Below, one piece after another: positions 36,903 through 52,424 of a stretch of DNA of 64,000 nucleotides. Position numbers and translations under genes: made by a program. This DNA comes from Macrostomum lignano. Lineage: Eukaryota. A model generated the notes under the pieces. The model did not search any database. It saw nothing but the letters and a program-made list of their open reading frames with translations, and had not been told where the DNA came from. The first letter of the stretch is position 1. Every line of letters begins with the position of its first letter. The DNA is taken from contig NIVC01000548.1 of the NCBI GenBank assembly GCA_002269645.1, forward strand, positions 49,693-113,692, written 5' to 3'.

Positions 36903-37202
36903 CACTCAGCAACATTGAAAAGTTTCCACCCTCGCGCCAGCCAGTTTCAAAAATGGTTTTTGTCGCCAGACTTGTGCCATAGACGATTGATGATTTCGTC
37001 AACACGCACTTGTGCCATAGACGATTGATGATTTCGTCAACACGCACTTGGGCCATAGACAAAAACTTGGGTCATGACGCCAGACAGCTCGAAGGAAACA
37101 GTCACATGGAGCAGACAGCAGCTGCTTAAAGGAGTCTAAAATCCACGTTCGCAACCGAACGCAATGGTTCGCCAAATGACCGACCTGGTACGAGCGCGGG
37201 CC
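36903..37202 (+). mobile_element. Left arm of an internally deleted Tc1/mariner element (TIR plus transposase codons 1-13)
   Basis: TA|CACTCAGCAACATTGAAAAGTTTCCACCCT terminus. ATG at 37164 gives MVRQMTDLVRARA, which continues in frame after the LTR element. Confidence 0.8.
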
Positions 37203-38066
37203 TGTAGAGTGTTCTACCTCCCGTTAAAAAAGGAAAAAAGAAGATAATCGTATAATACTACTATAAGTAAGTAAGTACACGCATGTGCGCCTAAGCTTTG
37301 AATGAATCACGCTACCAGAAAAAGATGTTACCAGAATAATACGCCATGAGCCATTTTCCCCTTTTAGCGCAACACGTGAATTGTCATGATACTATTTTGG
37401 ATCAAAAACTTGTCTATAAATACAAGCGATCTGAAGCGGTACCGGAGCCATTCTCCCCACGGAAGAGGAGCGCTCCGAAGAGGAAGCCTTAGGAGGACTT
37501 CCTGATCTACCAAGTCAATCGAGACTCGGTCGAGTTGTTGCGGTAAGCCTTCCTTATTTGCGCCCGTTGTGTTAGAGACGTCTCGCTCAAGTCTATTGAG
37601 ACTTGAGTCTAATTGAGTCTGTTGAGACTCTTGAGTCTGTTTAGACTCCATTGGTTGCAGTCTCCAGAAGGACTGCCCCTGATAGATCTTAGAGGACTAT
37701 CAGTGGTTTCCGGAGCTATACCTAGAGTGCATAGAGGCACTGCTAGAAGAAGGAGGCTTAATTTAGACCGCAGTTTGGCGCAGGGTACCCATTGTTGCTA
37801 CGAGGCCTCTGATTGGTCCTGACGGAAGATACCGGCCGGAAGAACTTATCGGAAGTACAAGAGGAACCAGGACCAGAGCAACTGAAGAATCAAGGCGCCT
37901 GATCTACGAGATCTACTGACAAGTTCCTAGCGAGAACTACTCAAGAAATTCAAATCCGGATTAAAGGTAATTGAATACCTTCGTTTGACTTACTGGGTTG
38001 CCTAGCTGTTGAGCTAGAAGTGATTGTTCCTTGATTATCGAAAGTCGGGTAATAAGGAACACATCA
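37203..38066 (+). repeat. 5' LTR (864 bp)
   Basis: TGTAGAG...ACACATCA; TATAAATA at ~37415. No difference from the 3' LTR seen by eye. Confidence 0.97.
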
Positions 38067-38068
38067 AT

Positions 38069-38080
38069 TGGTGATCTCGC
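38069..38080 (+). promoter_or_regulatory. Primer-binding site TGGTGATCTCGC
   Basis: TGG 2 nt downstream of the LTR. Complement ...GAGAUCACCA is most like a tRNA-Trp 3' end (tRNA identity is inference). Confidence 0.75.
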
Positions 38081-38775
38081 CCTCTCGGCACTACTCAAAC
38101 TTTGAGCAATAGCCCTGATCAAGCTATTGTAAAGTGACGACAGAGCGACTTCATTAATTTTGCGCGCACGTGTTAGAGTTAACACTTTTTAAGTCCGTTA
38201 CGTTTTGAAACTCGAGTAAAATTTTGGTGTACAGGTTTGAGCACCTGTCAAATTTGAGTACAGTTTGAGCACGCGTGTTAAATTTTGTTTTAACGAGCTC
38301 GAGCAAGTGTGAGTTAAAATAAAACCGAAATTAAATTCATCGGTACACTGAAAACAAACCGAAAATAAAAGAATCGTCGACGCAAAACAAACAAAAAATA
38401 ACTGAAACATTTTGCCGGCACAAAAACAAAACCGAAATTAATTGAAACTTCGTGGAGAGCGGAGTTAATTGACAAAAGAGAGAGAGTCAAAGAAGAGAAA
38501 AAGACTTTGCAAAACAAGAAGACAAAGCCCACTTCAACTTGAAGATACACTTTGCGGGACGCCGCATAAGTGCGAAATCAGCAAGCGAACAGAACAAGTT
38601 CATTTGAGGACAACCAGTGGCAGCAAGCCACACCGCATCCGAGGCCAGCGAATAACAAATCGACACCACAAGACAATTCGTTACAGTCGAGGTTTATTCC
38701 GAGGCAAACACCACACTGGACGATCCGTTACAAATCGATCCAGATCTTGAACTACCGTTCTATCCTATCAACAAC

Positions 38776-40247
38776 ATGGCGCGGCGCAATCCAACGGTAC
38801 ACAGAGACATCAAAGAAACGGTCGGTACCTTCTCGATGGAGAAAGATTTTAACACATTTGTCGACCACTTTGACCTGGTATGTAGGGAATACAACCTACA
38901 AAATCCAGAGAAGCACAGCTGCTGCCACCTCTTCTCCAAGGTACTGCGCGAGAAATTTACGGCAAGCTGGATGCGGCAACACAGCAAAATTATCCAGCAC
39001 TAATCATTCAACTGCGCGCGCATTTCAACCGTTGCGGCACAAACAGATCAGTGCTGCTGCACAAGTTGCATAACAGAAGGATGCAAGCAACAGAATCCTT
39101 CCTCGCCTTTGTGGACGATATCCGCCAGATAATTAAGGCACTGCATCAGCCACCGCTGCAAGCTGCGGACCAACCACCACTGGGAGCGGCAGAATTGGCC
39201 GCCAGAGAAAGACAACGATTGATGGATCGTGAACAAAACCTCATCCTGCACGTAATAAACAACGCACAGCCGTCACTTCGGGATAGACTTTTGCGTGAAA
39301 ATATCGAAACCGAAGAAGACCTTTTGCGTTGCGGAATGCAATGGGAAGCCAGTGCCCCATTAATGACGACAGGCAACAATGAAGTGCAGAAACTGACGCA
39401 GCAACTAAACAAGTTAATGCAGCACCAGACAGCTGCTATCGCCGAACAAAAAAGACGAAATGAACAAGCCTCAGCCAGATGTTACTACTGCGGACAAGAA
39501 GGACATTATCAGATTAATTGTCCTCATTGGTCAACAAGATACGACAAGCCGCGACAGATATTCAACAATCAGAAGCCGCAGAAACCATGGCAGCACTATC
39601 AAAATCGCCAACAACAAGGAATGAGACGCTTCGGAAATGATAGACGCTTCGGAAATAATGACCGCTCCGGAAATGATGGCCGCTTCGGAAACGAAGGCCG
39701 CTTCAGAAGTAATGGCTACAGGCCACGCAACGTCAGATACACACAAAGACAGCCGACGCAAGCAATGCCACGATACGCGAATGCCATCACGTACACACCG
39801 GAAAATGAACAGCAAGAACAGCAAGTGTTCACAATTGACGACTTGGAAATGGACTTCACAGTCCCGGAACTTGACATCAGCTTGATCGAAAAGAAGACGA
39901 CGCACGAGGACAACACTGACAACACAGAAGAGACGAATGAAACCGAAATGATCAAATTAAAAGAGACCACCGGAGACAGCAGAGAAAACAGGAAGAAAGT
40001 AAATCACAAGACAAGGGAGGAGGCGGAGAGCGACATCGGCAACGAAGAAAAGATGAAAACCGGCGAAGAAAACAACTATGAATCGACAACAGTGGATGAC
40101 GACAAAACGAGCATGAAAGACAAAGAAATGAAAGAAGAAGAAGAATGTAGAAGTTACGGCAACGACCACGACTGCGAGGTGCGTGATGACACGAACGACT
40201 ACCAAGCCGAAAGAGGAATGCAGGAAGAACGAGAGCGGAGAATCTAA
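38776..40247 (+). CDS. gag: Gag (one -1 frame break at ~38986-38989), with CCHC zinc knuckle, RFGN repeats and acidic tail
   Basis: Capsid-like FSMEKDFNTFVDHFDLVC; after the shift, NYPALIIQLRAHF...; CYYCGQEGHYQINC. Confidence 0.85.
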
Positions 40248-40294
40248 GTTCCGACAGCGATCAAGGCTACGAAATACAATGGAAAGATGAAGAA

Positions 40295-42562
40295 ATGGAA
40301 AAAGAACAGGTGAAAGAAAAGCCGAGTTCCGACAGCGACGAATGCTACGAGATCCGATACAAACGAAATGGTGAAGCCTATATTCAAACGGTCGACTACA
40401 AGACAGAGAAAAGATACCAAACGCAATGGAGTGAAACAACGGAAACATCGGAAGAAGCCGCAGACGAAGATAATGAAATAACCAAAAAGCAAAGCGAATC
40501 AGAAGCCTTCCGCCTGGATCAGCCAATGGAACAACCGAAAGAATATGATGCGGACATGGAAGATAACGAATGGCGATCGCAGCCAATGCCAGCAAGGACA
40601 ACGGCAAAATCCAAGAAGTGGAAAAACTGGCTATTCTGGATCATCGTGATACTACTGATAGCAGTAGTCGCCAAAGCAACGGCAACGGAAAAGCCAATGA
40701 TTTGTCCAACGGATGCGCATATCCAACCGATGATCTACAAGATACCAACCGACATCAAATGCAGTTACTTCAAGACAAACCAGACAAAACCAAAGAAGAT
40801 TACACTCGATCTCTACAAGGCTAACATCAAGAAGCATCGACAACACGGGATAGTATGCTTCAGAGACAAGCACCTGGTGGAAAAAGTTTGGCGCGGACAA
40901 TGGAACCGGATCCGATTTAAACAACATGAGCTACATGTGTCGCACGCGGAATGCCTACAATGGAATCAAACACTATTTTCAAAGGATGGTGAACTGGAAC
41001 CAGATGAGAAGGTCGGCAACGCACAGCTGTTCAGAACAAAGAATTCAGCCAACGGTCGATATATTCACTTCTTCGGAAAATGGAAAGAATATATGGCACG
41101 CAACAGCTACTTGATCAGAAATATTCCATTCTACTACAATCCGTACGAGAAAATGGAATCGTTACAGCTGCAACTAAGCGAATGTCGATACAGTGAAGGA
41201 TGGTGTCCAACGCCGATTCTACGGAAGGAAGAACTACACAGTCTACCACTGAGTCCAACATATCATCAAGACTATCGATGGCAGATTGAGCACAGAGCAC
41301 AATCACACTATGAGGAACCGTACAATTCACGACAATATTTCTTCGCATGGGAAGTAGAGCCGGAAATTGACTGCAAGCTTCAAAAGTATCACACAGTTGA
41401 AGGAGGACTACTGTCGAATACGTTTTTGGCAAAGCAGGAGACTTGGCCTGACGTTTCAAAAGAACCGGTTGAACAGGAACTCAAATGCAAGGATACGGAC
41501 AAGACGCTATTCATCTCGGAGCAAGAAATACCAGTCTATGTAAAGGATGACGACAAGCGAACCTTCCTGACGATCATAAACGGAACGTATCAACAACAAG
41601 AAAGGCGACGACGCGACATAGAACGTCCACGATTGGTGTCGAACCGACTACTGTCAGCAAAGATCACGGCTTTAGATCACAATCTGCATAACCAGCTAAA
41701 TCACCTACATCGATCACTGGTTCAGTTAACTTGCAAGATGCACGCAATCAACTTGAACTACGCAAGACAAAACTACTATGTCAACCCTACGATGACATTT
41801 CGCAAGATCACTGGAATGAGAGAGGTTCTGGCAATTCCGATATATGGACATCTCCTGATATACAAGTGCACGCCGATACAGCACTTTAACATCTTGCCGT
41901 CAAACACGTCAACAACCTGCTACGATAAGCCAAGGATTGAAGCGTTCTACGAAGGAAAACGAATTCAGGGATTCTTGGACACGGTACACAACATCATCGT
42001 TGGCACCGCAATACCGAGACCTTGCACCACGGCAGTAAACTACTATCAACTGGACAATGCACTACACGTCATCAAAACAACTGGAACGACAGCAAACGTC
42101 ACAGAACCGGAAGTAATCGTCGACGAAAACTACGACATGGAGGATTTGAAAATCCGATTCAACAGAACGAAGTATACGCCATTCGCCGATATCCAACTTG
42201 ACGAGATAACACCAGGATGGACGATCAACGACTTCTTGCAAGCGTTCATCACCCAACGCAAGATGATTCACCAGCTGTTCACAAGAAAGGACAAAGGAAC
42301 CGGGACAGGAAGATTTCCCGTCCTTGTTTCAATGGACAGCGCCATCAAATCATTTTGGACAAATAGCTTCTGGGAGCTGCTCAATGGAAGAGGCAGTCTC
42401 TATCAAGGATTCATCTTCTACGGTGCTTGCATTGTGTGGATTGTCACGGCAATCTTCATCATTTCATCGATCGTACGGTGCTTCAGTCAAACTTGTCCAA
42501 GAGCTAAGAAGACAGTGAATGCCATAATGCAAAGAACGACAACGGAAGCGACAACAGTTTAG
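40295..42562 (+). CDS. env: Env-like class III viral fusion glycoprotein (gB/chuvirus-G-like); frame open from 40190
   Basis: Hydrophobic signal segment WLFWIIVILLIAVVAKATA (40628-40684), Cys-rich ectodomain (CP..C, VS..EC, CRYSEGWC), furin site RRRR (41603-41614), VNPT..R and CYDKP.I motifs reminiscent of gB, several N-glycosylation sequons, TM at ~42407-42475. Confidence 0.8.
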   Translation: MEKEQVKEKPSSDSDECYEIRYKRNGEAYIQTVDYKTEKRYQTQWSETTETSEEAADEDNEITKKQSESEAFRLDQPMEQPKEYDADMEDNEWRSQPMPARTTAKSKKWKNWLFWIIVILLIAVVAKATATEKPMICPTDAHIQPMIYKIPTDIKCSYFKTNQTKPKKITLDLYKANIKKHRQHGIVCFRDKHLVEKVWRGQWNRIRFKQHELHVSHAECLQWNQTLFSKDGELEPDEKVGNAQLFRTKNSANGRYIHFFGKWKEYMARNSYLIRNIPFYYNPYEKMESLQLQLSECRYSEGWCPTPILRKEELHSLPLSPTYHQDYRWQIEHRAQSHYEEPYNSRQYFFAWEVEPEIDCKLQKYHTVEGGLLSNTFLAKQETWPDVSKEPVEQELKCKDTDKTLFISEQEIPVYVKDDDKRTFLTIINGTYQQQERRRRDIERPRLVSNRLLSAKITALDHNLHNQLNHLHRSLVQLTCKMHAINLNYARQNYYVNPTMTFRKITGMREVLAIPIYGHLLIYKCTPIQHFNILPSNTSTTCYDKPRIEAFYEGKRIQGFLDTVHNIIVGTAIPRPCTTAVNYYQLDNALHVIKTTGTTANVTEPEVIVDENYDMEDLKIRFNRTKYTPFADIQLDEITPGWTINDFLQAFITQRKMIHQLFTRKDKGTGTGRFPVLVSMDSAIKSFWTNSFWELLNGRGSLYQGFIFYGACIVWIVTAIFIISSIVRCFSQTCPRAKKTVNAIMQRTTTEATTV

Positions 42563-45500
42563 AACTAACAGAAACTGCACATTGTGAGGTTCAAGGGCAA
42601 CCGACACTAGCAACGCGGCTATATCCATCGATTCCGACAACACCAACGGCACCAAGGATACAACCACCCAACTATCAAGCAGAACAGCACGAGCCAAAAT
42701 GGCCGGAAAACTACGTCTGTACGCTACACGCCGAGATTGGCAAAGCAATGGCTCAGGTCATTGTCAACAACTTGCCATGTCGAGCACTACTGGATTCAGG
42801 CAGCTCGATCACAGTCATCTCGCAACAATTATGCAACAAGCTACGACTCGCGGTACGACCAGCAGCAATCGCAGTTGCAGGAGCAGGAGGACATTCACTC
42901 AACATCCTAGGAAAAGCAGATATCGACTTGAAAATTGCTAATAAACAGCTGACGGTCCCGACGTACATCATCGACAGACTACCAAACCAAGACGTCATCG
43001 TTGGAATCGACACGTTCAAGCAGCTTCAACTACCATTGACCTTCGACTTCAACAAGCAAACGTTTAGGATCGACACGGTGGAGCAACCGCTGATCAACCA
43101 GATTCGAGTACTACCGAAAGTAACTCTGCAGCAAGATGTCATTATCCAGCCTGAAAGCGCATGCTGGGTCAGAGCGAAAACGACCAGCGCGGCAGATGAA
43201 GCAATGATATTTGATCCACACAGGAGAGTCACGGCAAAACATCAAATCATGATGCCTACGGCACTAGTGCTGGTTGCAAAGGATAAGCAACTGCCAGTAC
43301 AAATCTTCAACCCGAACACAGAAACGGTTCATCTACGACAAGGAATGTGCATCGGTCATCTCAACACCCAAGCATCGGTTATGCTGATTGAACAAGCGAC
43401 TCCACGACTAACAGAGGAAGAATTTCAAAAGAAGATCAATTTGGATGACAGCCCGATTACGGAACAGCAAAAGAGGAAAGTTCGACAGCTGTTGTGGAAG
43501 TACAACGAAGCCTTCTGCCATCATGATTACGACATCGACGAGCCAAGGACATCAAACAGGAAATCAAACTTCTGCCGCACACGGAACCAATTCAGTGCAA
43601 GCCGTACCCGATCGCCAAGCATCTGCAACAACACTTTGACGAAATCATCGATAAAATGCTAAAGCACGGCATCATCAGCAAAGCTATTTCGGCTTACTCC
43701 TCACCGTGCCTACTGGTACAGAAGAAGGAGACAAACGAAAGACGACTCGTATGCGACTTCAGACTGTTGAACAAGTACATACCGACGGATCAGCAAAGCC
43801 TACCGAAGATCTCCGAACTACTAGCAAAGCTCAACACGGCAAAATTGTTCACGGTGTTCGACCTACGTCATGGATTTTGGCAAATTGAAATCGAGAAAGA
43901 GTCACGACAGTACACGGCTTTCAAAACCTACAATGGACAAGTATACGAGTACAATCGATCGCCGATGGGACTCAGCAACAGCCCAGCAACGATGAGCCGA
44001 CTAACAGCATACATGCTTGCAGGATGCACGAACCTGTTGCACTATGTTGACGACATCTTGGCCCACGGAGAAGACTTCGACGACTCTATGAAGCGACGGA
44101 GAAGGCCCTCGCGCTTATACAACGTCAAGGTCTGAAGCTACAACCAACTAAATGCAAATTCTTCCGAGACAACGTGCGTTACCTGGGACATCAGGTGACA
44201 GCCAAAGGAATCTCACCGGACCCAGACAACGTGGAAAAGGTGAAGAAGTTTCCTACGCCAACCAGTATAACGAAGGTCCAATCATTCCTTGGACTTGCGC
44301 AATACTTCAGGAAGTTCTTACCTAACTTCGCAAAGACAGCAAAGCCACTGTACGACCTGCTCAAGTTCGACAAATGGAAGCAAGACAACTGGACACAGAG
44401 ACAACAGGAAAGTTTCGACGAAATCAAACGACAGCTGACATCAGACGCACTGCTACAGCATCCGGACTTCGACAAGCCCTTCATCATCGAGACAGACGCC
44501 TCAGGAACGGGACTCAGAGCAGTCCAACTACAGGAAACCGAGGACAAGAAGGAACGACCTATTGCTTACGTCAGTCGAGCACTCAAACCAAATGAGACAA
44601 AGTGGTCAGCTACGGAACGAGAGCTACTAGGAGTCTTGTTCGCCCTGCGACAGTTTCATTACTACATCTATGGTTCTCCAATACAGACGATAGTACGCAC
44701 GGATCATGCACCATTGACCTACGTCGTAACTACAAAAGGACAGACCAACAACCGACTCATCAGGATGACACTCAAGATACAGGATTACAACTACAAACTC
44801 GTCTACAAACCAGGAATTACCAACAAAGCCGCGGACGCCCTGTCAAGAGCCTATGAAGTCAACGCCATTCATCCAATCCCTAACATCAAGGAGTTGGTGG
44901 ATGAAACCGAGCGCGACAACTTCTACCAAGCGGTTAAAGACGACGACAAGAACATCAAACTTAGCCCATGGAACGAAAATTCCTACGCAAGCAACGACAA
45001 CACCTAACAATCAATAAGTCACGGCTCTACTGGATGAGCGACAATAAACCTAAGATCTACGTACCATATTCGTTTCGGCAAGCAATTCTCAACGAGCTGC
45101 ACGACAACCCACTCGCTGGACACCTGTCGGCCGCAAAGACCATCGCGAGAGTGGAACAATACTACTTTTGGCCAACTATGTACGGCGACATCAAGCAGTA
45201 TTGCAACAACTGCCATTCATGTGCTGCATCAAAGACAGGACGACGACAGAAACCGCAGCTACAGTCCATTCCGAAGTCGACTACAATGGACTGTCTAAGC
45301 ATCGACATCACCGGACCACTGCCACCGAGCTGTCTCCAGGGCATCGCCTACACCTACATCCTAACCGCCTTGGACATCTTCTCGAAGTTTGCTATCGCCA
45401 TACCGATACCGGACATCACAGCTCAGACAGTGGCAATGAGTTTCTTCAACGAAATCATTTGCAAGTACGGCACGCCGAAGAACCTCACATCGGACAACGG

Positions 45501-46254
45501 ATCGCAGTTTACATCGCAGCTGTTTCAGCAAGTCGTAAGGATTCTCAACATTACGCAGATCTACACATCGACCTACAATCCGAAGGCAAACATGGTTGAA
45601 AGGTTTCACCGCAACCTGCACGAGATGATTACACACTTCGCGCACCAACAGCCGGAAGACTGGATCATCTACCTGCAATCTGTAACAATGGCCTACAACA
45701 GCGCTATTCATCGATCAACGGACAATACGCCATTCTTCCTAATGTTTGGACGAGACTTCCAACCGCCGAATCTGCTCGCACAGCAATTGCTACCATCGCA
45801 GTACGTGGAAGTACCGACTTCCATTCAGAAATTTGTCACGCAGCTACACCTCGCATGGAAGATCGCCAAGCACAACATTGACAACCAGGTGGCTCTGACC
45901 ACCGGCAACGACGCGAGATCGACAACCCTGACGGCCGGCGACATCGTTTACCTACACTACCCGCCGCAGCAGACGCATAAACATGCACAGAAGTATAAAG
46001 GACCCTATCGAGTGGTCCAACTAACGTCACCGACAACGGCACGCCTGGCTAATGTACAAGATCCACATCAGCACCAGTTCTACGTACACATTCATCGACT
46101 AAAGAAGATCAACACTGACACCGCGACGTTTCTACCGACATTAGACAACGCGGATCGCACGCGTTCAACGAACCGCCACATCGCGACAAAGCACGAGGAG
46201 ACTCAAACGACAGATGTGAGCCAGCCACATGGCTACAACCTACGACCACGCTAG
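42508..46254 (+). CDS. pol: Pol: late-domain-like linker, protease, RT, RNase H, integrase (three -1 breaks at ~43537, ~44081, ~44965)
   Basis: LLDSGS; YSSPCLLVQK, RLVCDFRLLN, DLRHGFWQI, YVDDIL; TDASG, TERELLG, RTDH; H..GH..C..C zinc finger, DITGP, SDNGSQF, VERF, KYKGPYRV. Confidence 0.93.
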
Positions 46255-46374
46255 AGTTTCGAGAGCAACCCCGTGTAGTGACCGGGATAAAGAATAGCAC
46301 TACAGCTTCGCAAGCTTGTCGTAAAAGGCGACTAATCCGAGCGACACAAAGACAGCGACAAATTGACAACAATT

Positions 46375-46749
46375 ATGAGCAACGCACTGTCGAAACAGGC
46401 GCCCCAGCCTCAGCAGCTATATGACTGCCCGATATGTTTAACTGATGACTTGGCTGTCAAGCCACCGACTATTTGCATCAACGAACATAAAGTTTGCGGA
46501 CAATGTTTAAGCGATTCACATTATATTCAGCCATGGCAGAATTGTCCCCTCTGTAGAGATAGTTTGCGACAATGTGCCTATTGTTATTCTTGGCGCACGT
46601 TTCAATATTGTAACCACCAACATTTTATTTGCATGCACTGTTTGAAGCAAACCGCTAGTAGGGGCGTTATAGGATGCCCCTTATGTAATAGTATGCCGCG
46701 AGACTGCACGTTTCGAAAGTGGTGTCGGATCAAACCTGATGCCACTTGA
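46375..46749 (+). CDS. Accessory ORF with two tandem C3HC4 RING-like fingers (124 aa) inside the LTR element
   Basis: CPIC..CINEHKVCGQC..CPLC followed by CAYC..CNHQHFICMHC..CPLC; intact ATG to TGA. Confidence 0.8.
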   Translation: MSNALSKQAPQPQQLYDCPICLTDDLAVKPPTICINEHKVCGQCLSDSHYIQPWQNCPLCRDSLRQCAYCYSWRTFQYCNHQHFICMHCLKQTASRGVIGCPLCNSMPRDCTFRKWCRIKPDAT

Positions 46750-46914
46750 TGTCTACGCGATATTCGAGTTTTGACCGCAATATGTACTGAAAAGTTTTTA
46801 GAGTTTTGACCAAACCCTCGCTTCACTAGACGCGCACAAAATCAATTGTTTATTTCCTATATTAACTGATCACCACAGAATTTTATTGTTAAAACTCGGG
46901 ACGAGTTTTTTCGT

Positions 46915-46926
46915 AAAAAAGGGAGA
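46915..46926 (+). promoter_or_regulatory. Polypurine tract AAAAAAGGGAGA
   Basis: Ends 3 nt upstream of the 3' LTR. Confidence 0.85.
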
Positions 46927-46929
46927 TTT

Positions 46930-47793
46930 TGTAGAGTGTTCTACCTCCCGTTAAAAAAGGAAAAAAGAAGATAATCGTATAATACTACTATAAGTAAGTA
47001 AGTACACGCATGTGCGCCTAAGCTTTGAATGAATCACGCTACCAGAAAAAGATGTTACCAGAATAATACGCCATGAGCCATTTTCCCCTTTTAGCGCAAC
47101 ACGTGAATTGTCATGATACTATTTTGGATCAAAAACTTGTCTATAAATACAAGCGATCTGAAGCGGTACCGGAGCCATTCTCCCCACGGAAGAGGAGCGC
47201 TCCGAAGAGGAAGCCTTAGGAGGACTTCCTGATCTACCAAGTCAATCGAGACTCGGTCGAGTTGTTGCGGTAAGCCTTCCTTATTTGCGCCCGTTGTGTT
47301 AGAGACGTCTCGCTCAAGTCTATTGAGACTTGAGTCTAATTGAGTCTGTTGAGACTCTTGAGTCTGTTTAGACTCCATTGGTTGCAGTCTCCAGAAGGAC
47401 TGCCCCTGATAGATCTTAGAGGACTATCAGTGGTTTCCGGAGCTATACCTAGAGTGCATAGAGGCACTGCTAGAAGAAGGAGGCTTAATTTAGACCGCAG
47501 TTTGGCGCAGGGTACCCATTGTTGCTACGAGGCCTCTGATTGGTCCTGACGGAAGATACCGGCCGGAAGAACTTATCGGAAGTACAAGAGGAACCAGGAC
47601 CAGAGCAACTGAAGAATCAAGGCGCCTGATCTACGAGATCTACTGACAAGTTCCTAGCGAGAACTACTCAAGAAATTCAAATCCGGATTAAAGGTAATTG
47701 AATACCTTCGTTTGACTTACTGGGTTGCCTAGCTGTTGAGCTAGAAGTGATTGTTCCTTGATTATCGAAAGTCGGGTAATAAGGAACACATCA
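46930..47793 (+). repeat. 3' LTR (864 bp)
   Basis: Copy of 37203-38066 at offset 9727. Confidence 0.97.
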
Positions 47794-48132
47794 GGCCATT
47801 GGCATGCTGGACGCTGGGATGTCCATCCGAGCTGTTGCTAGCCAAATTGGGCGGTCGCACACAGCAATCCGCAAACTGCAGATCAAGTGCAGAGAAACGA
47901 GCAGCGTGGTGCTCACTCCTTTGACGACTCCTTTGAAGGCGAATCCGACAGCACTGCCTAGTAACAGGAATGTAGCCCTGCATCGGTTGGAGTGCACTTG
48001 CTCTTTGCTGTTCCTTTGCTTCGTTCGAATCCGGATTATATATTTGTCTATGGCTCAAACCACAAATATCTCCACCCACCAAAACGTTGACCCTTCGCGC
48101 GCTAGGGTGGAAACTTTCAATGTTGCTGAGGG
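47794..48132 (+). mobile_element. Right arm of the internally deleted Tc1 element
   Basis: IGMLDAGMSIRAVASQIGRSHTAIRKLQIKCRETSSV (Tc1 N-terminal HTH), then the DDE region is lost. TIR AGGGTGGAAACTTTCAATGTTGCTGAGGG; the right TA is not preserved. Confidence 0.8.
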
Positions 48133-48278
48133 GCTCGTATTAATACCTGTATGAAACTTTCAATTTGTTTTTTTTTGTCTTCTGATCTAATATTTTTTTT
48201 ACTTCTGAAGTTTACCTAGCTTAATATCAGTTACGAGTACTATTAGTTTACATGACTGCATTTTCAGCGACTGCTCTG

Positions 48279-49560
48279 ATGAATCCGCAGCAGCTGAAGG
48301 ATGTCGCTGCCGCCAAGATCGACGAGTCGCGCGAGCTGCTGCTCAGCGTCAGTTCTCGCCTGTGGCAGAACCCGGAGCTGGCGCTGGAGGAGCGAATGGC
48401 GCACCAGCTTCTGACGGAGACGCTGGAGTCGTCGGGCTTCAGCGTGACGCGGCACTTTGTGCTGGACACCGGGTTCAAGGCCGAGTTCGGGTCTGCTGGC
48501 GCCGGGCGGCCCCACATCGCCGTGATGTGCGAGTTCGACGCTCTGCCGGGCATCAGGCACGCCTGCGGACACAACCTGATCGCCGAGGTGGCGGTGGGTG
48601 CCGGTCTGGGCATCAAGGCGGCCATGGAGGCGGGCGGCGTGGCCGGCAGGGTCACCGTGCTCGGGACGCCGGCAGAGGAGGCACAGGGCGGCAAGATCAA
48701 CATGATCAATGCGGGTTTTTTCAAAGACGTTGACGTCGCTCTGATGGCGCATCCAGACCGCATGACAACGGTACACAGCGCTCACTTGAGTCTGAGTAGT
48801 ATTGAGGTTATCTTCACCGGCAAGGCGTCCCACGCGGCCGGCTCGCCCAGGGAGGGCCTCAACGCCCTTGACGCGGCCGTGACGGCCTACCAGAGCGTGT
48901 CGAACCTGCGGCAGCAGATGCGGCCGGACTGGCGGGTGCACGGCATCGTGAAGGAGGGCGGCCAGCGGCCCAACATCATCCCTGAGCGAGCTGTGCTAGG
49001 TCAGGTTATTAGTGCAATCTGTAGTGCGGATTAAAAGTGCAAAACTAAGCTCTTGCATCTTGGTGACGCAGCAAACGCTTCAACTTCCAGAGTACTGCAC
49101 CCGAGCTTCAACTGGCGGCGACTCGCAACTGCTGCTCAACAAAGTGAAGCAATGCATGCATGCGGCTGCCATGGCAACCGGATGCGAGTGCCTCATCTCA
49201 GAGTCGGAACCTGAGTACAAGAATGTGATTCCCAATCGCGCTCTTGCTGGCGCCTACAGTGCGAACTTGAGAGCTCTGGGTGTTGAGCACACTCAGCTGT
49301 ACCCGGAGCCCACCGGCTCAACCGACATGGGCAATGTGAGCTACGAGGTGCCGTCCATTCATCCGATGTTCTTCATCGGTGGCGACACTGCCACGCATAG
49401 TGCGGGATTTGCGGTGCTGGCCGGAGCTGCTGAGGCGCAGCGTTACGTCCTGGAGCAGGCCAAGGCTCTGGCGATGACCGGCATCGATGTGCTCACGGAG
49501 CCTGCGCTGGTGCAGCGATGCTGGGAAACTTTTCAGGAGGATCTGAGCATCTACGGCTAA
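48279..49560 (+). CDS. PM20D2: PM20D2 paralog 2 (396 aa)
   Basis: Exons 48279-48999 and 49091-49560. Same M20 motifs, with GIRHACGH and GSPREG variants. Confidence 0.9.
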
Positions 49561-49810
49561 GAGCCGGGGGTGATGGGAGACTCAAGGATGAGCGGAGGGT
49601 GATGGGAGACTCAAGGAAGAGCTGAGGGAGATGGGAGACTCAAGGATGAGCTGAGGGTAATGGAAGACTCAAGGATGAGCTGAACATCTGTGGCTAGAGC
49701 GGAGGGTGATGGGAGACTCAAGGATGAGCTGAGGATGATGGGAGACTCAAGGATGAGCTGAGGGTAATGGGAGACTCAAGGATGAGCTGAGCACCTGTGG
49801 CTGGAGCTGA
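49561..49810. repeat. ~29-bp minisatellite (GGGAGACTCAAGGATGAGCTGAGGGTGAT)
   Basis: About 7-8 units starting right after the stop codon. Confidence 0.85.
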
Positions 49811-50211
49811 TTGTGATGGGAAACTCGAAAATGTGTTTTTTCGTTGCCTAGTGCAAATTTTTCTAACCAAAATAGTTGGTACGAAAGCTTTATTAAAGTC
49901 TTTTTTGCTAAAAAATTACTGAATTGCAATGTTTATATTTTATCATGAAGCAATCGAGAAAATATCCTCATGAAAACTGTTTTAATCGTAATTTGAATTA
50001 AGTGGACTAATTCCAATAGAACTATTTGATAGTCCTAAATATACATAATTGAACATTTTTCCAGTTCCAGGCGTTTTCGCTCTCAAATATGTATTTTCAG
50101 GTTATTTCTGCTTACTTGTTAGTAGCGAGATACAGTTTCTTTAGTCCGTTATTCCGCTACAGGTCTCATTGTCTCAGGTTTTCTACCAACCGCATTTCAG
50201 CGACTGCTCTG

Positions 50212-52424
50212 ATGAATCCGCAGCAGCTGAAGGATGTCGCGGCCGCCAAGATCGACGAGTCGCGCGAGCTGCTGCTCGGCGTCAGCTCCCGCCTGTGGCA
50301 GAACCCGGAGCTGGCGCTGGAGGAGCGAATGGCGCACCAGCTGCTGACGGAGACGCTGGAGTCGTCGGGCTTCAGCGTGACGCGGCACTTTGTGCTGGAC
50401 ACCGGGTTCAAGGCCGAGTTCGGGTCTGCTGGCGCCGGGCGGCCCCACATCGCCGTGATGTGCGAGTTCGACGCTCTGCCGGGCATCGGGCACGCCTGCG
50501 GACACAACCTGATCGCCGAGGTGGCGGTGGGCGCCGGTCTGGGCATCAAGGCGGCCATGGAGGCGGGCGGCCTGGCCGGCAGGGTCACCGTGCTCGGGAC
50601 GCCGGCAGAGGAGCACTACGGCGGAAAGATCAACTTTATTGAGGCCGGCTTCTTCAAAGACGTTGACGTGGCCCTCATGGCGCACCCGTACAAGCTGACG
50701 GCAGTGCACGTGCCGCACCTCAGTGTGGCTTTCCTCCGAGCAACGTACACCGGCAAGGCGTCCCACGCTGCCGGCTCGCCCTGGGAGGGCCTCAACGCCC
50801 TTGACGCGGCCGTGACGGCCTACCAGAGCGTGTCGAACTTGCGGCAGCAGATGCGGCCGGAGTGGCGGGTGCACGGCATCGTGAAGGAGGGCGGCCAGCG
50901 GCCCAACATCATCCCTGAGCGAGCTGTGCTGGGTGAGTCGATTTGATAAAAAGTTATTCAACGTAGCTCTGTTAAATTGACTGCTGAAAATAATGTTTGC
51001 TGAACGTCAAATGGTGCAGTTACCATTGTATACTGATGATGTAAGGCCCCCTGTTGTTTCCTTGTGCTAAAGCCCCTTGATCCTAAAGCCCCTTGGTGCT
51101 GGCGCCCCTTGGTGCTGGCGCACCTTGGTGCTGGCGCCCCTTGGTGCTGGCGCCCCTTGGTGCTGGCGCCCTTGGTGCTAAAGCCTCTTGGTGCTGGCGC
51201 CCCTTGGTGCTATAGCCCCTTGGTGCTGGCGCCTCTTGGTGCTGGCGCCCCTTGGTGCTGGCGCCCCTTGGTGCTGGCGCCTCTTGGTGCTGGCGCCCCT
51301 TGGTGCTAAAGCCCCTTGGTGCTGAAGCCTCTTGGTGCTAAAGCCCCTTGGTGCTAAAGCCCCTTGGAGCTAAAGCCTCTTGTTGCTAAAGCCCCTTGGT
51401 GCTGGCGCCCCTTGGTGCCAAAGCTTCTTGGTGCTAAAGCCCCTTGATGCTGGCGCTCCTTGGTGCTGGCGCCTCTTGGTGCTGGCGCCCCTTGGTGCTG
51501 GCGCCCCTTGGTACCAAAGCCCCTTGGTGCCAAGGCTTCTTGGTGCTAAAGCCCCTTGATGCTGGCGCTCCTTGGTGCTGGCGCCCCTTGGTGCTGGCGC
51601 CTCTTGGTGCTGGCGCCTCTTGGTGCTGGCGCCTCTTGGTGCTGGCGCCCCTTGGTGCTGGCGCCCCTTGGTACCAAAGCCCCTTGGTGCTAAAGCCTCT
51701 TGGTGCTAAAGCCCCTTGGTTACAAAGCCCCTTGGTGCTAAAGCCTCTTGGTGTTAAAGCCCCTTGGTGCTAAAGCCTCTTGATGCTAAAGCCTCTTGAT
51801 GCAGGAGCCATCTGTCATGGTTGAAGCTGAACTTGCACTTTAAATTCTATGGCTTTCTTGACGTATTACGTTTTAGTTATTGTTTAGAAGTTAAGCACCT
51901 TAAATCTGCTTCGATCCGAAACAATGTTTCTTTCAACATCAATTTCGTCAGACTATTTCGTCCGCTGTCCCAGCGATCGCGAACTGGCCGTACTCCGAGC
52001 TCGAGTTGAAGCCTGCCTCCGGGCTGGCGCGGTCGCCTCCGGCTGCGAATGCAGCATCGAGGACATAAGCCGCGGCTACAGCAGCGTCATCTGCAACGCG
52101 CCACTCGGAGCTGCCTATAGCGCCAATCTGACCGCTCTAGGTGTTGAACACGTTGGCATCACGGAACTGCCGTCGGGTTCAACAGATATGGGCAACGTTA
52201 GTTACACTGTGCCGGCAATCCATCCCATGTTCTACATGGGCGGCGACGCGCCCAACCATAGCGTGGAGTTCACTCGATTTGTTAACCTACCGGAGGCCCA
52301 GCCGTATACTCTGGCTCAGGCCAAGGCCCTGGCCATGACTGGCATTGACATCCTGACTGGGCCCGAGCTGCTGGCCAAGTGTGAGGCTCAGTTTAAAGCC
52401 GATTTGGCTCGGTTCGCTGCCTAA
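50212..52424 (+). CDS. PM20D2: PM20D2 paralog 3 (397 aa)
   Basis: Exons 50212-50932 and 51952-52424; all M20 motifs intact. Confidence 0.92.
51065..51800. repeat. 17-bp minisatellite (CCCTTGGTGCTGGCGCC / CCCTTGGTGCTAAAGCC)
   Basis: About 42 units in the PM20D2-3 intron. Confidence 0.93.

Follow-up and report, generated by a model that had tools for sequence, protein, structure and literature searches.

Why should a flatworm retroelement carry a small gene with two RING fingers, and on what would its product act? The question is raised by a 124-aa open reading frame (ORF) in Macrostomum lignano, located in a 64,000-nucleotide stretch of contig NIVC01000548.1 (hereafter, the window). From the sequence of the window, the original prediction described an intact accessory gene captured by a gag-pol retroelement and serving either to counter silencing or to assist budding. 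To our knowledge, few animal retrotransposons carry counter-defence genes, and little has been established about what restricts env-bearing gypsy elements beyond the insects. The reading developed here, to which we assign even chances, is that the ORF descends from a family of trans-acting accessory E3 ligases directed at host proteins.

The element and its surroundings

The ORF lies in a Ty3/gypsy element of 10,591 bp (37203-47793) bounded by identical 864-bp long terminal repeats (LTRs). The expected plain gag-pol organization gave way to gag-env-pol, with a gB-type env between gag and protease. The features of the element are as follows.

37203..38066, + strand: 5' LTR of 864 bp, its sequence the same as that of the 3' LTR; 4-bp target duplication GGCC
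after 37543, + strand: splice-donor-like site in the 5' LTR (gene model P0001; one contig)
38069..38080, + strand: primer binding site (PBS), identical to that given for Mlig_errantivirus_2
38656..40247, + strand: gag region, including a CCHC knuckle; the window copy has an interrupted frame
40295..42562, + strand: env, class III (gB / Monjiviricetes-type) fusion glycoprotein; PF24664, E 1.3e-4, under the cut-off
42643..42675, + strand: PTAP and PPNY late-domain motifs in the env-protease linker
42748..46254, + strand: protease, reverse transcriptase (RT), RNase H, and integrase; several frame interruptions in the window copy
46270..46332, + strand: intergenic RNA element, an H-type pseudoknot (covarying stem 2) and two hairpins, preceding an A/C-rich leader
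46375..46749, + strand: RING-A ORF, truncated 124-aa form, ATG to in-frame stop
46426..46557, + strand: RING1 (C3HC4; C-x3-H as in Sina/SIAH; Ile, Pro, linchpin Arg)
46573..46686, + strand: RING2, an internal duplicate of RING1 (hhalign probability 94%, E 1e-7) without the E2-activating Arg
46750..46850, + strand: start of a helical domain, decayed remnant; gene B is missing altogether, as is the remainder of gene A
46915..46926, + strand: polypurine tract (PPT), seen in the sequence
46930..47793, + strand: 3' LTR

In Pfam, the Monjiviricetes fusion glycoprotein family matched, below its cut-off, a 755-aa stretch in the interval between gag and protease. Relatives join gag, env, and pol as one frame, which is broken at several places in the window copy; frames of at least 2,400 codons remain open in 16 of 143 genomic env matches, 11 of these in the RING clade. 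LTRs, PBS, PPT, the order protease-RT-RNase H-integrase, and a class III env after gag and before pol are all present, as in errantiviruses. No heat-shock elements were found in the window LTR.

Indeed, the element is already known. It shares its 864-bp LTR, 10,591-bp length, PBS, HSV/gB-type env, and gag-env-pol order with Platyhelminthes_Rhabditophora_Mlig_errantivirus_2, for which the accessible part of the supplement gives 16 copies (Chary and Hayashi, PMC13524379). As far as the accessible text extends, gag-env-pol elements occur in flatworms, nematodes, and bryozoans (PMC13524379). The annotation there covers gag, env, and pol only, and RING, accessory, zinc finger, and ubiquitin do not occur in the main text. 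It is the short variant whose size is catalogued, and the longer, cassette-bearing relatives described below are absent among the rows listed in the accessible supplement (PMC13524379). The RING gene itself is without description in the searchable literature: none was found in the literature searched, and subscription papers, Repbase notes, or bioRxiv supplements may mention it.

A 33-bp inverted repeat (36905-36937 and 48099-48130) delimits the short unit in which the element is situated; the sequence interrupted there, with an ORF at 47804-48154, may resemble a Tc1-type helix-turn-helix. Elsewhere, the window holds at least two tandem host M20-family peptidase genes (48252-52424) and a long 16-bp tandem repeat from about 26113, which gave 97 overlapping reference matches.

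A shortened double-RING gene

The position and the two predicted fingers of the ORF were confirmed: its 124 codons (46375-46749) begin 120 bases past the integrase stop (46254) and end before the PPT and 3' LTR (46930), and they contain two C3HC4 patterns separated by 6 residues. RING1 reads C-x2-C-x12-C-x3-H-x2-C-x2-C-x12-C-x2-C and RING2 reads C-x2-C-x8-C-x3-H-x2-C-x2-C-x11-C-x2-C; both fingers retain all eight ligands with RING spacing, loop 1 of RING2 being, at 8 residues, one short of the usual minimum. Shuffling the residues of the ORF 20,000 times never yielded the two-finger pattern and yielded a single pattern 46 times, and the six frames of the window contain no C3HC4 match besides this ORF. 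The Pfam RING scores of the window protein are below the curated cut-offs (zf-RING_2, E 0.003); among its relatives, Sina_RING matches 17 of 18 family members at E<=0.1, and P0152 surpasses the zf-C3HC4_3 cut-off (34 bits vs 27).

The description of the gene as intact did not survive comparison with sister copies, which extend to 144 or 222 aa, include a C-terminal helical domain, and have a second paralog behind them. In the window ORF, the helical domain, the second gene, and the N-terminal Gly motif are all missing. An 8-bp deletion was considered as the cause of its early end and ruled out, the ORF being closed by an in-frame stop. A single-sequence homolog search with the window ORF as query confirmed none of 11 candidates. 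Taken alone, this 124-aa form is a remnant of modest interest, probably weakened or dead.

Cassette classes in young insertions

Throughout the genome, at least 145 matches were counted, with 150 of 211 candidates scored. Among the best 30 of these loci, 16 share the short end seen in the window (the whole 124 aa in 15), seven belong to a 144-aa class (full length in six), and seven to a long class (the whole 222-aa protein in five). The long form continues into the C-terminal helical domain, and behind it comes a paralog of 210 aa with the same build. In sister lineages, the full cassette consists of two to four tandem paralogs of 200-222 aa, each with the organization RING1-RING2-helical domain. 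Lineages with 70-72% integrase identity carry two or three paralogs (four in fragmentary loci), and even between these the cassette retains its position after the integrase. A predicted myristoylation motif (Gly2/Ser6/Lys7) is found in 28 of the best 30 loci, the exceptions being the window copy and one other. It recurs in the next sub-lineage and is missing from the two distant lineages, and lineages with 70-72% integrase identity lack it; as judged from sequence, the putative signal is confined to one sub-clade.

Loss of the cassette is frequent. A stop in gene A is carried by 21 of the at least 145 matches, and in the four loci of this dead class that were inspected it follows codon 70, one zinc ligand is gone, and gene B is missing. 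These copies are young: all 10 LTR pairs of the dead class are 99.2-100% identical, and in two copies the frame stays open over 2,400 codons or more. LTR pairs at least 99% identical make up 18 of 22 in the two short classes, 4/4 and 2/2 in two full classes, and 3/3 in a pol-deleted class. Because the Macrostomum lignano assembly is redundant, as stated in the accessible part of its description (PMC12801592), distinct 3' flanks were counted, giving 12 (124-aa class), 6 (144-aa class), 9 (dead class), and 3 (closest full class). Deletion joints spanning the cassette also appear in a sequencing run that is not putatively RNA; the short forms thus exist as DNA.

The original prediction had made the state of the ORF in other young copies decisive, and the outcome is divided: the gene is dead in one young class and truncated in that of the window, but equally young classes retain the full cassette. 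As the cassette is truncated or dead in most of the young dispersed insertions examined, any benefit that it brings must be conditional. Moreover, since insertions of the dead class are no older than those of the others, the element can do without the cassette in cis, as expected for a product acting in trans.

A young, non-autonomous class (L041, L083, L085, L087, and L088) lacks the 3' half of env, protease, RT, and most of the integrase; both RING genes are whole in all five loci inspected. Separately, a head-to-tail array (G000:C2121:1-70000; L129-L135) comprises whole elements and 3' fragments (integrase end, genes A/B, LTR), with 72 of 72 matches on one strand within 70 kb. Similar clusters occur on C87, C1130, C272, C1405, and C4009. 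Such an array could be a piRNA-cluster-like trap or the result of tandem amplification.

Ligase hallmarks of the RING fingers

An Arg directly follows the last Cys of RING1 in 23 of 23 proteins and of RING2 in none of the 23. RING1 also carries Pro in 22/23 and Ile or Val in loop 1 in 20/23; we take these residues to be the linchpin and E2-contact positions of active RING ligases. Across 18 of 18 aligned proteins, 13 of the 16 zinc ligands are invariant and two more are nearly so, and the best matches among solved structures are the RINGs of E3 ligases, namely SIAH1 (E 3.7e-5), RING1B, and TRIM21. The pairing of an active with an inactive RING is familiar from BRCA1-BARD1 and RING1B-BMI1.

RING1 has its C-x3-H-x2-C spacing and CPxCR end in common with Sina/SIAH and TRIM-like host E3s. 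The resemblance stops there: in the host genes the RING is followed by SIAH fingers or a B-box-like motif rather than RING2 and a helical domain. The zinc fingers and substrate-binding domain that follow the RING in SIAH are absent from 18/18 cassette members, and the helical domain gave no usable Atlas match and no informative PDB match. A host tandem cluster of RING and B-box-like (TRIM-like) genes (G000:C210; L137-L140) has the C-x3-H spacing of RING1. Both host families share RING1 only, which does not single out a donor.

Could the proteins instead be zinc-finger regulators without enzymatic activity, acting on the RNA, translation, or assembly of the element? Arenavirus Z, a myristoylated RING protein, offers a model, and the small, putatively myristoylated RING build of one sub-clade and a RING2 without catalytic hallmarks are in keeping with it. 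However, RING1 has the linchpin Arg, Pro, and loop-1 hydrophobic residue of active E3s, no late motif was seen in the alignments of the RING proteins themselves, and the cassette is dispensable in cis. We therefore regard a Z-like regulator as quite improbable and ligase activity, as suggested by the conserved residues, as likely.

Selection, relatives, and origin

Pairwise dN/dS values (Nei-Gojobori) were computed for pairs with at least 50% identity and unsaturated dS, the others being saturated. Gene A gave 0.10-0.28 (10 pairs), the B/C paralogs 0.14-0.30 (3 pairs), the integrase 0.015-0.047 (4 pairs), and the helical domain 0.12 (the single computable pair). No value comes near 1, and these pairwise comparisons give no indication of positive selection. 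The RING genes evolve faster than the integrase, as expected for host-facing genes. Together with the RING1 hallmarks, values of 0.10-0.30 bear out the earlier proposal of an E3-like accessory gene selected as a protein, insofar as sequence can indicate. In having accessory ORFs under selection, the element resembles complex (accessory-gene) retroelements.

These values also bear on the simplest alternative, that the cassette is neutral cargo, a host fragment captured once and now decaying. Truncation and death of the cassette, arrived at more than once and independently in classes that are young and numerous, would fit such a history. Purifying selection with saturated synonymous sites does not, nor do the 13 of 16 ligands invariant in all 18 proteins and the conserved spacing and expression signals. 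For the family, neutral cargo is largely refuted by dN/dS, and we consider it very unlikely overall; it may apply to the truncated form of the window only.

A profile search of 1.84 billion representatives returned 185 proteins at E<=0.001. The same architecture is present in P0001-P0005 and a fragment, P0091; the other matches inspected share the RING only, and a second profile search added P0152. Only one homolog of the RING family has a name, a gene model of Macrostomum lignano (P0001) called on gene B, which was also the only longer, fused form among the 7,999 proteins scored. With P0002 as query, none of six pattern matches in viral contigs was confirmed. The paralogs are 19-26% identical to gene A. 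In a tree of 23 proteins, relatives taken from public sequencing runs are placed on both sides, P0002 and P0005 in the A group and P0003, P0004, and P0152 in the B group (98/97 support, long branches); because outside relatives are split between the two, the duplication is older than their divergence.

The ORF is indeed richer in T than the rest of the element (0.28 vs 0.16-0.19 in gag, env, protease, RT, and integrase), as had been noticed, but the capture read from this composition finds no support. Third-position T is 0.26-0.39 in gene A of every lineage, and in the paralogs (0.09-0.22) it matches that of the integrase (0.14-0.22). Kept in gene A despite saturated synonymous sites and missing in the paralogs, the T-richness is no scar of capture.

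Late-domain motifs and budding

An alternative raised at the outset is that the RING proteins aid particle release by ubiquitinating the polyprotein or ESCRT adaptors at the membrane. The window element does possess PTAP and PPNY in its polyprotein, and the Gly motif of gene A in its sub-clade would suit a membrane location. P(T/S)AP was detected in the env-protease linker of 7/8 RING-clade loci, the dead class included. It was also detected in 7/9 loci from RING-less env-bearing lineages at 32-38% integrase identity, in which a RING profile found no match among the ORFs behind the integrase. Late motifs are thus present in RING-less and RING-dead lineages too, and budding does not track the RING genes. 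RING-dead copies, moreover, persist with LTR identities of 99.2-100% and with frames that stay open for no fewer than 2,400 codons. PPxY motifs recruit host NEDD4-type ligases, which would make a ligase of the element's own unnecessary, and two to four diverged paralogs are left unexplained. Although its motifs were found, the predicted budding role is consequently weakened, and we judge it improbable.

The RING-less lineages have either no 3' ORF or an unrelated one, of about 255 or 310 aa, in place of RING genes. The shorter (L118-L122) is located about 180 bases past the integrase behind a CAG-ATG acceptor and is common to two diverged families; the longer (L114, L116, L123, and L124) is T-rich. 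Neither has a convincing Pfam match.

Expression signals

Read-through from the integrase into the RING ORF was considered and rejected: the phase of the spacer varies among four lineages (0, 2, 1, and 1), and stops intervene. The 63-nt RNA element, for which Rfam gave only three chance-level matches, recurs upstream of gene A in 16 of 17 aligned loci, the exception being a decayed locus with an unverified start. Nine variants among 67 matches all form the H-type pseudoknot, stem 2 of which occurs in three compensating forms that retain 6 or 7 of 7 pairs. The last hairpin has 103 genomic occurrences versus 1 for the control. A search with the pseudoknot pattern gave two matches, the one inspected lacking the rest of the element, and, compared with the folds of HDV-like, twister, and pistol ribozymes as known to us, the element fits none. 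It is unchanged in the RING-dead class and may therefore also serve replication in cis.

Genes in second position are preceded by a different signal, a CAG 0 or 2 bases before the ATG in 16/16 sequence variants. In 15/15 variants of first-position genes, no AG stands within 9 bases (none within 45 bases in four), and a CAG acceptor is found in one of four third- and fourth-position genes. Gene model P0001 joins the donor-like site of the LTR to the ATG of gene B, and one contig, from a putatively RNA run, leaves the LTR at this site. Among the joints listed for four runs, none leads from the LTR to a RING acceptor, and contigs cross the A-B spacer unspliced. Of 20 sequence sets with matches, none is recorded as RNA and 14 are putatively so, and contig depth is no basis for ranking the genes. 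The accessible part of one study states that about 30% of host genes are trans-spliced and that the spacers of its operons measure about 100 bases (PMC8629364); leader trans-splicing is thus an alternative route for gene B. From these signals, we infer candidate routes that are pseudoknot-dependent for gene A and acceptor-dependent for gene B.

Proposed function

With the anatomy, selection, E3 hallmarks, and loss in young lineages established above, a mechanism can be proposed. The window ORF is the shortened first gene of an old cassette in one clade of env-bearing Ty3/gypsy elements, which in full encodes two to four small paralogous proteins. RING1 would bind and activate host E2~ubiquitin, and RING2 and the helical domain would provide the surface for partners and substrates. 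The targets would be host proteins that hinder the element, such as defence, silencing, or cell-death factors, which would become ubiquitinated. Action in trans would allow lineages without the cassette to continue copying, and myristoylation of gene A, presumably normal in the sub-clade of the window, would point to a membrane-side target. A target in host defence is a little less probable than not.

Alternatively, the cassette might promote cell survival, as in the planarian element Burro1, by ridding stem or germ cells of pro-death or stress factors, and might now serve the host. The Burro1 precedent, the amplification of cassette-plus-LTR 3' fragments in the head-to-tail array (72/72 on one strand, 70 kb), and the host gene model P0001 called on gene B would accord with such a role. 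Yet a BIR or other death-pathway domain is present in none of the 18 members, no single fixed, element-free copy was found, and the array is equally explicable as a silencing cluster. A mutualist role thus appears unlikely.

If the E3 ligases are indeed directed at defence proteins, a broader and distinctly tentative picture would follow, in which flatworm errantiviruses are 'complex' retroviruses parallel to those of vertebrates. The present clade would possess a duplicating arsenal of E3s that destroys host defence proteins; its first gene would be expressed through a new pseudoknot (of exonuclease-blocking or internal-entry type) and the next by cis-splicing or spliced-leader trans-splicing, and the product would be a public good exploited by cassette-less lineages. 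In that event, the substrates would name the host's anti-retroelement proteins. A small, natural E3-like family in a tractable flatworm offers a direct handle, its substrates being open to pull-down, and full, truncated, and dead cassettes in equally young copies constitute a natural experiment.

Comparison with known systems

Small virus-borne RING proteins are well known, among them the RING E3 accessory proteins of viruses and arenavirus Z. The cassette proteins have no full-length homology with viral RING E3s, and no relative was found in viral contigs; RING clusters of large DNA viruses are look-alikes in the Atlas (score 0.86-0.91) and serve as leads only.

Closer in setting are the additional ORF3s of bdelloid LTR elements, which are likewise lineage-specific 3' accessory genes past pol, gained and lost, and are expressed from separate (spliced) units (PMC5408684). 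They differ in encoding GDSL esterases, DEDDy exonucleases, or transmembrane proteins, with no occurrence of RING or ubiquitin in that report (PMC5408684).

The closest parallel is provided by the Burro elements of planarians, which, according to the accessible text, have env in frame between gag and pol and contain ubiquitin-related domains (PMC6431247). The RING+BIR inhibitor of apoptosis protein (IAP) of Burro1, B-IAP, protects stem cells (Lee et al. 2026, as described in the accessible part of PMC13465017), so a RING in a flatworm gypsy element is not without precedent. Common to both systems are a flatworm gypsy element, an in-frame env, and ubiquitin-related cargo that includes a RING. 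A host-directed function has been demonstrated for B-IAP. As portrayed in the portions of those papers available, Burro elements have the RING in a BIR-containing IAP, the cargo domains in a giant polyprotein, and an F-type env; the Macrostomum genes are free-standing at the 3' end, combine a tandem RING pair with a helical domain, lack a BIR, and occur in two to four copies. What is new is the set of free-standing, duplicated double-RING genes with a helical domain and RNA signals, in a genome where full and cassette-less lineages exist side by side.
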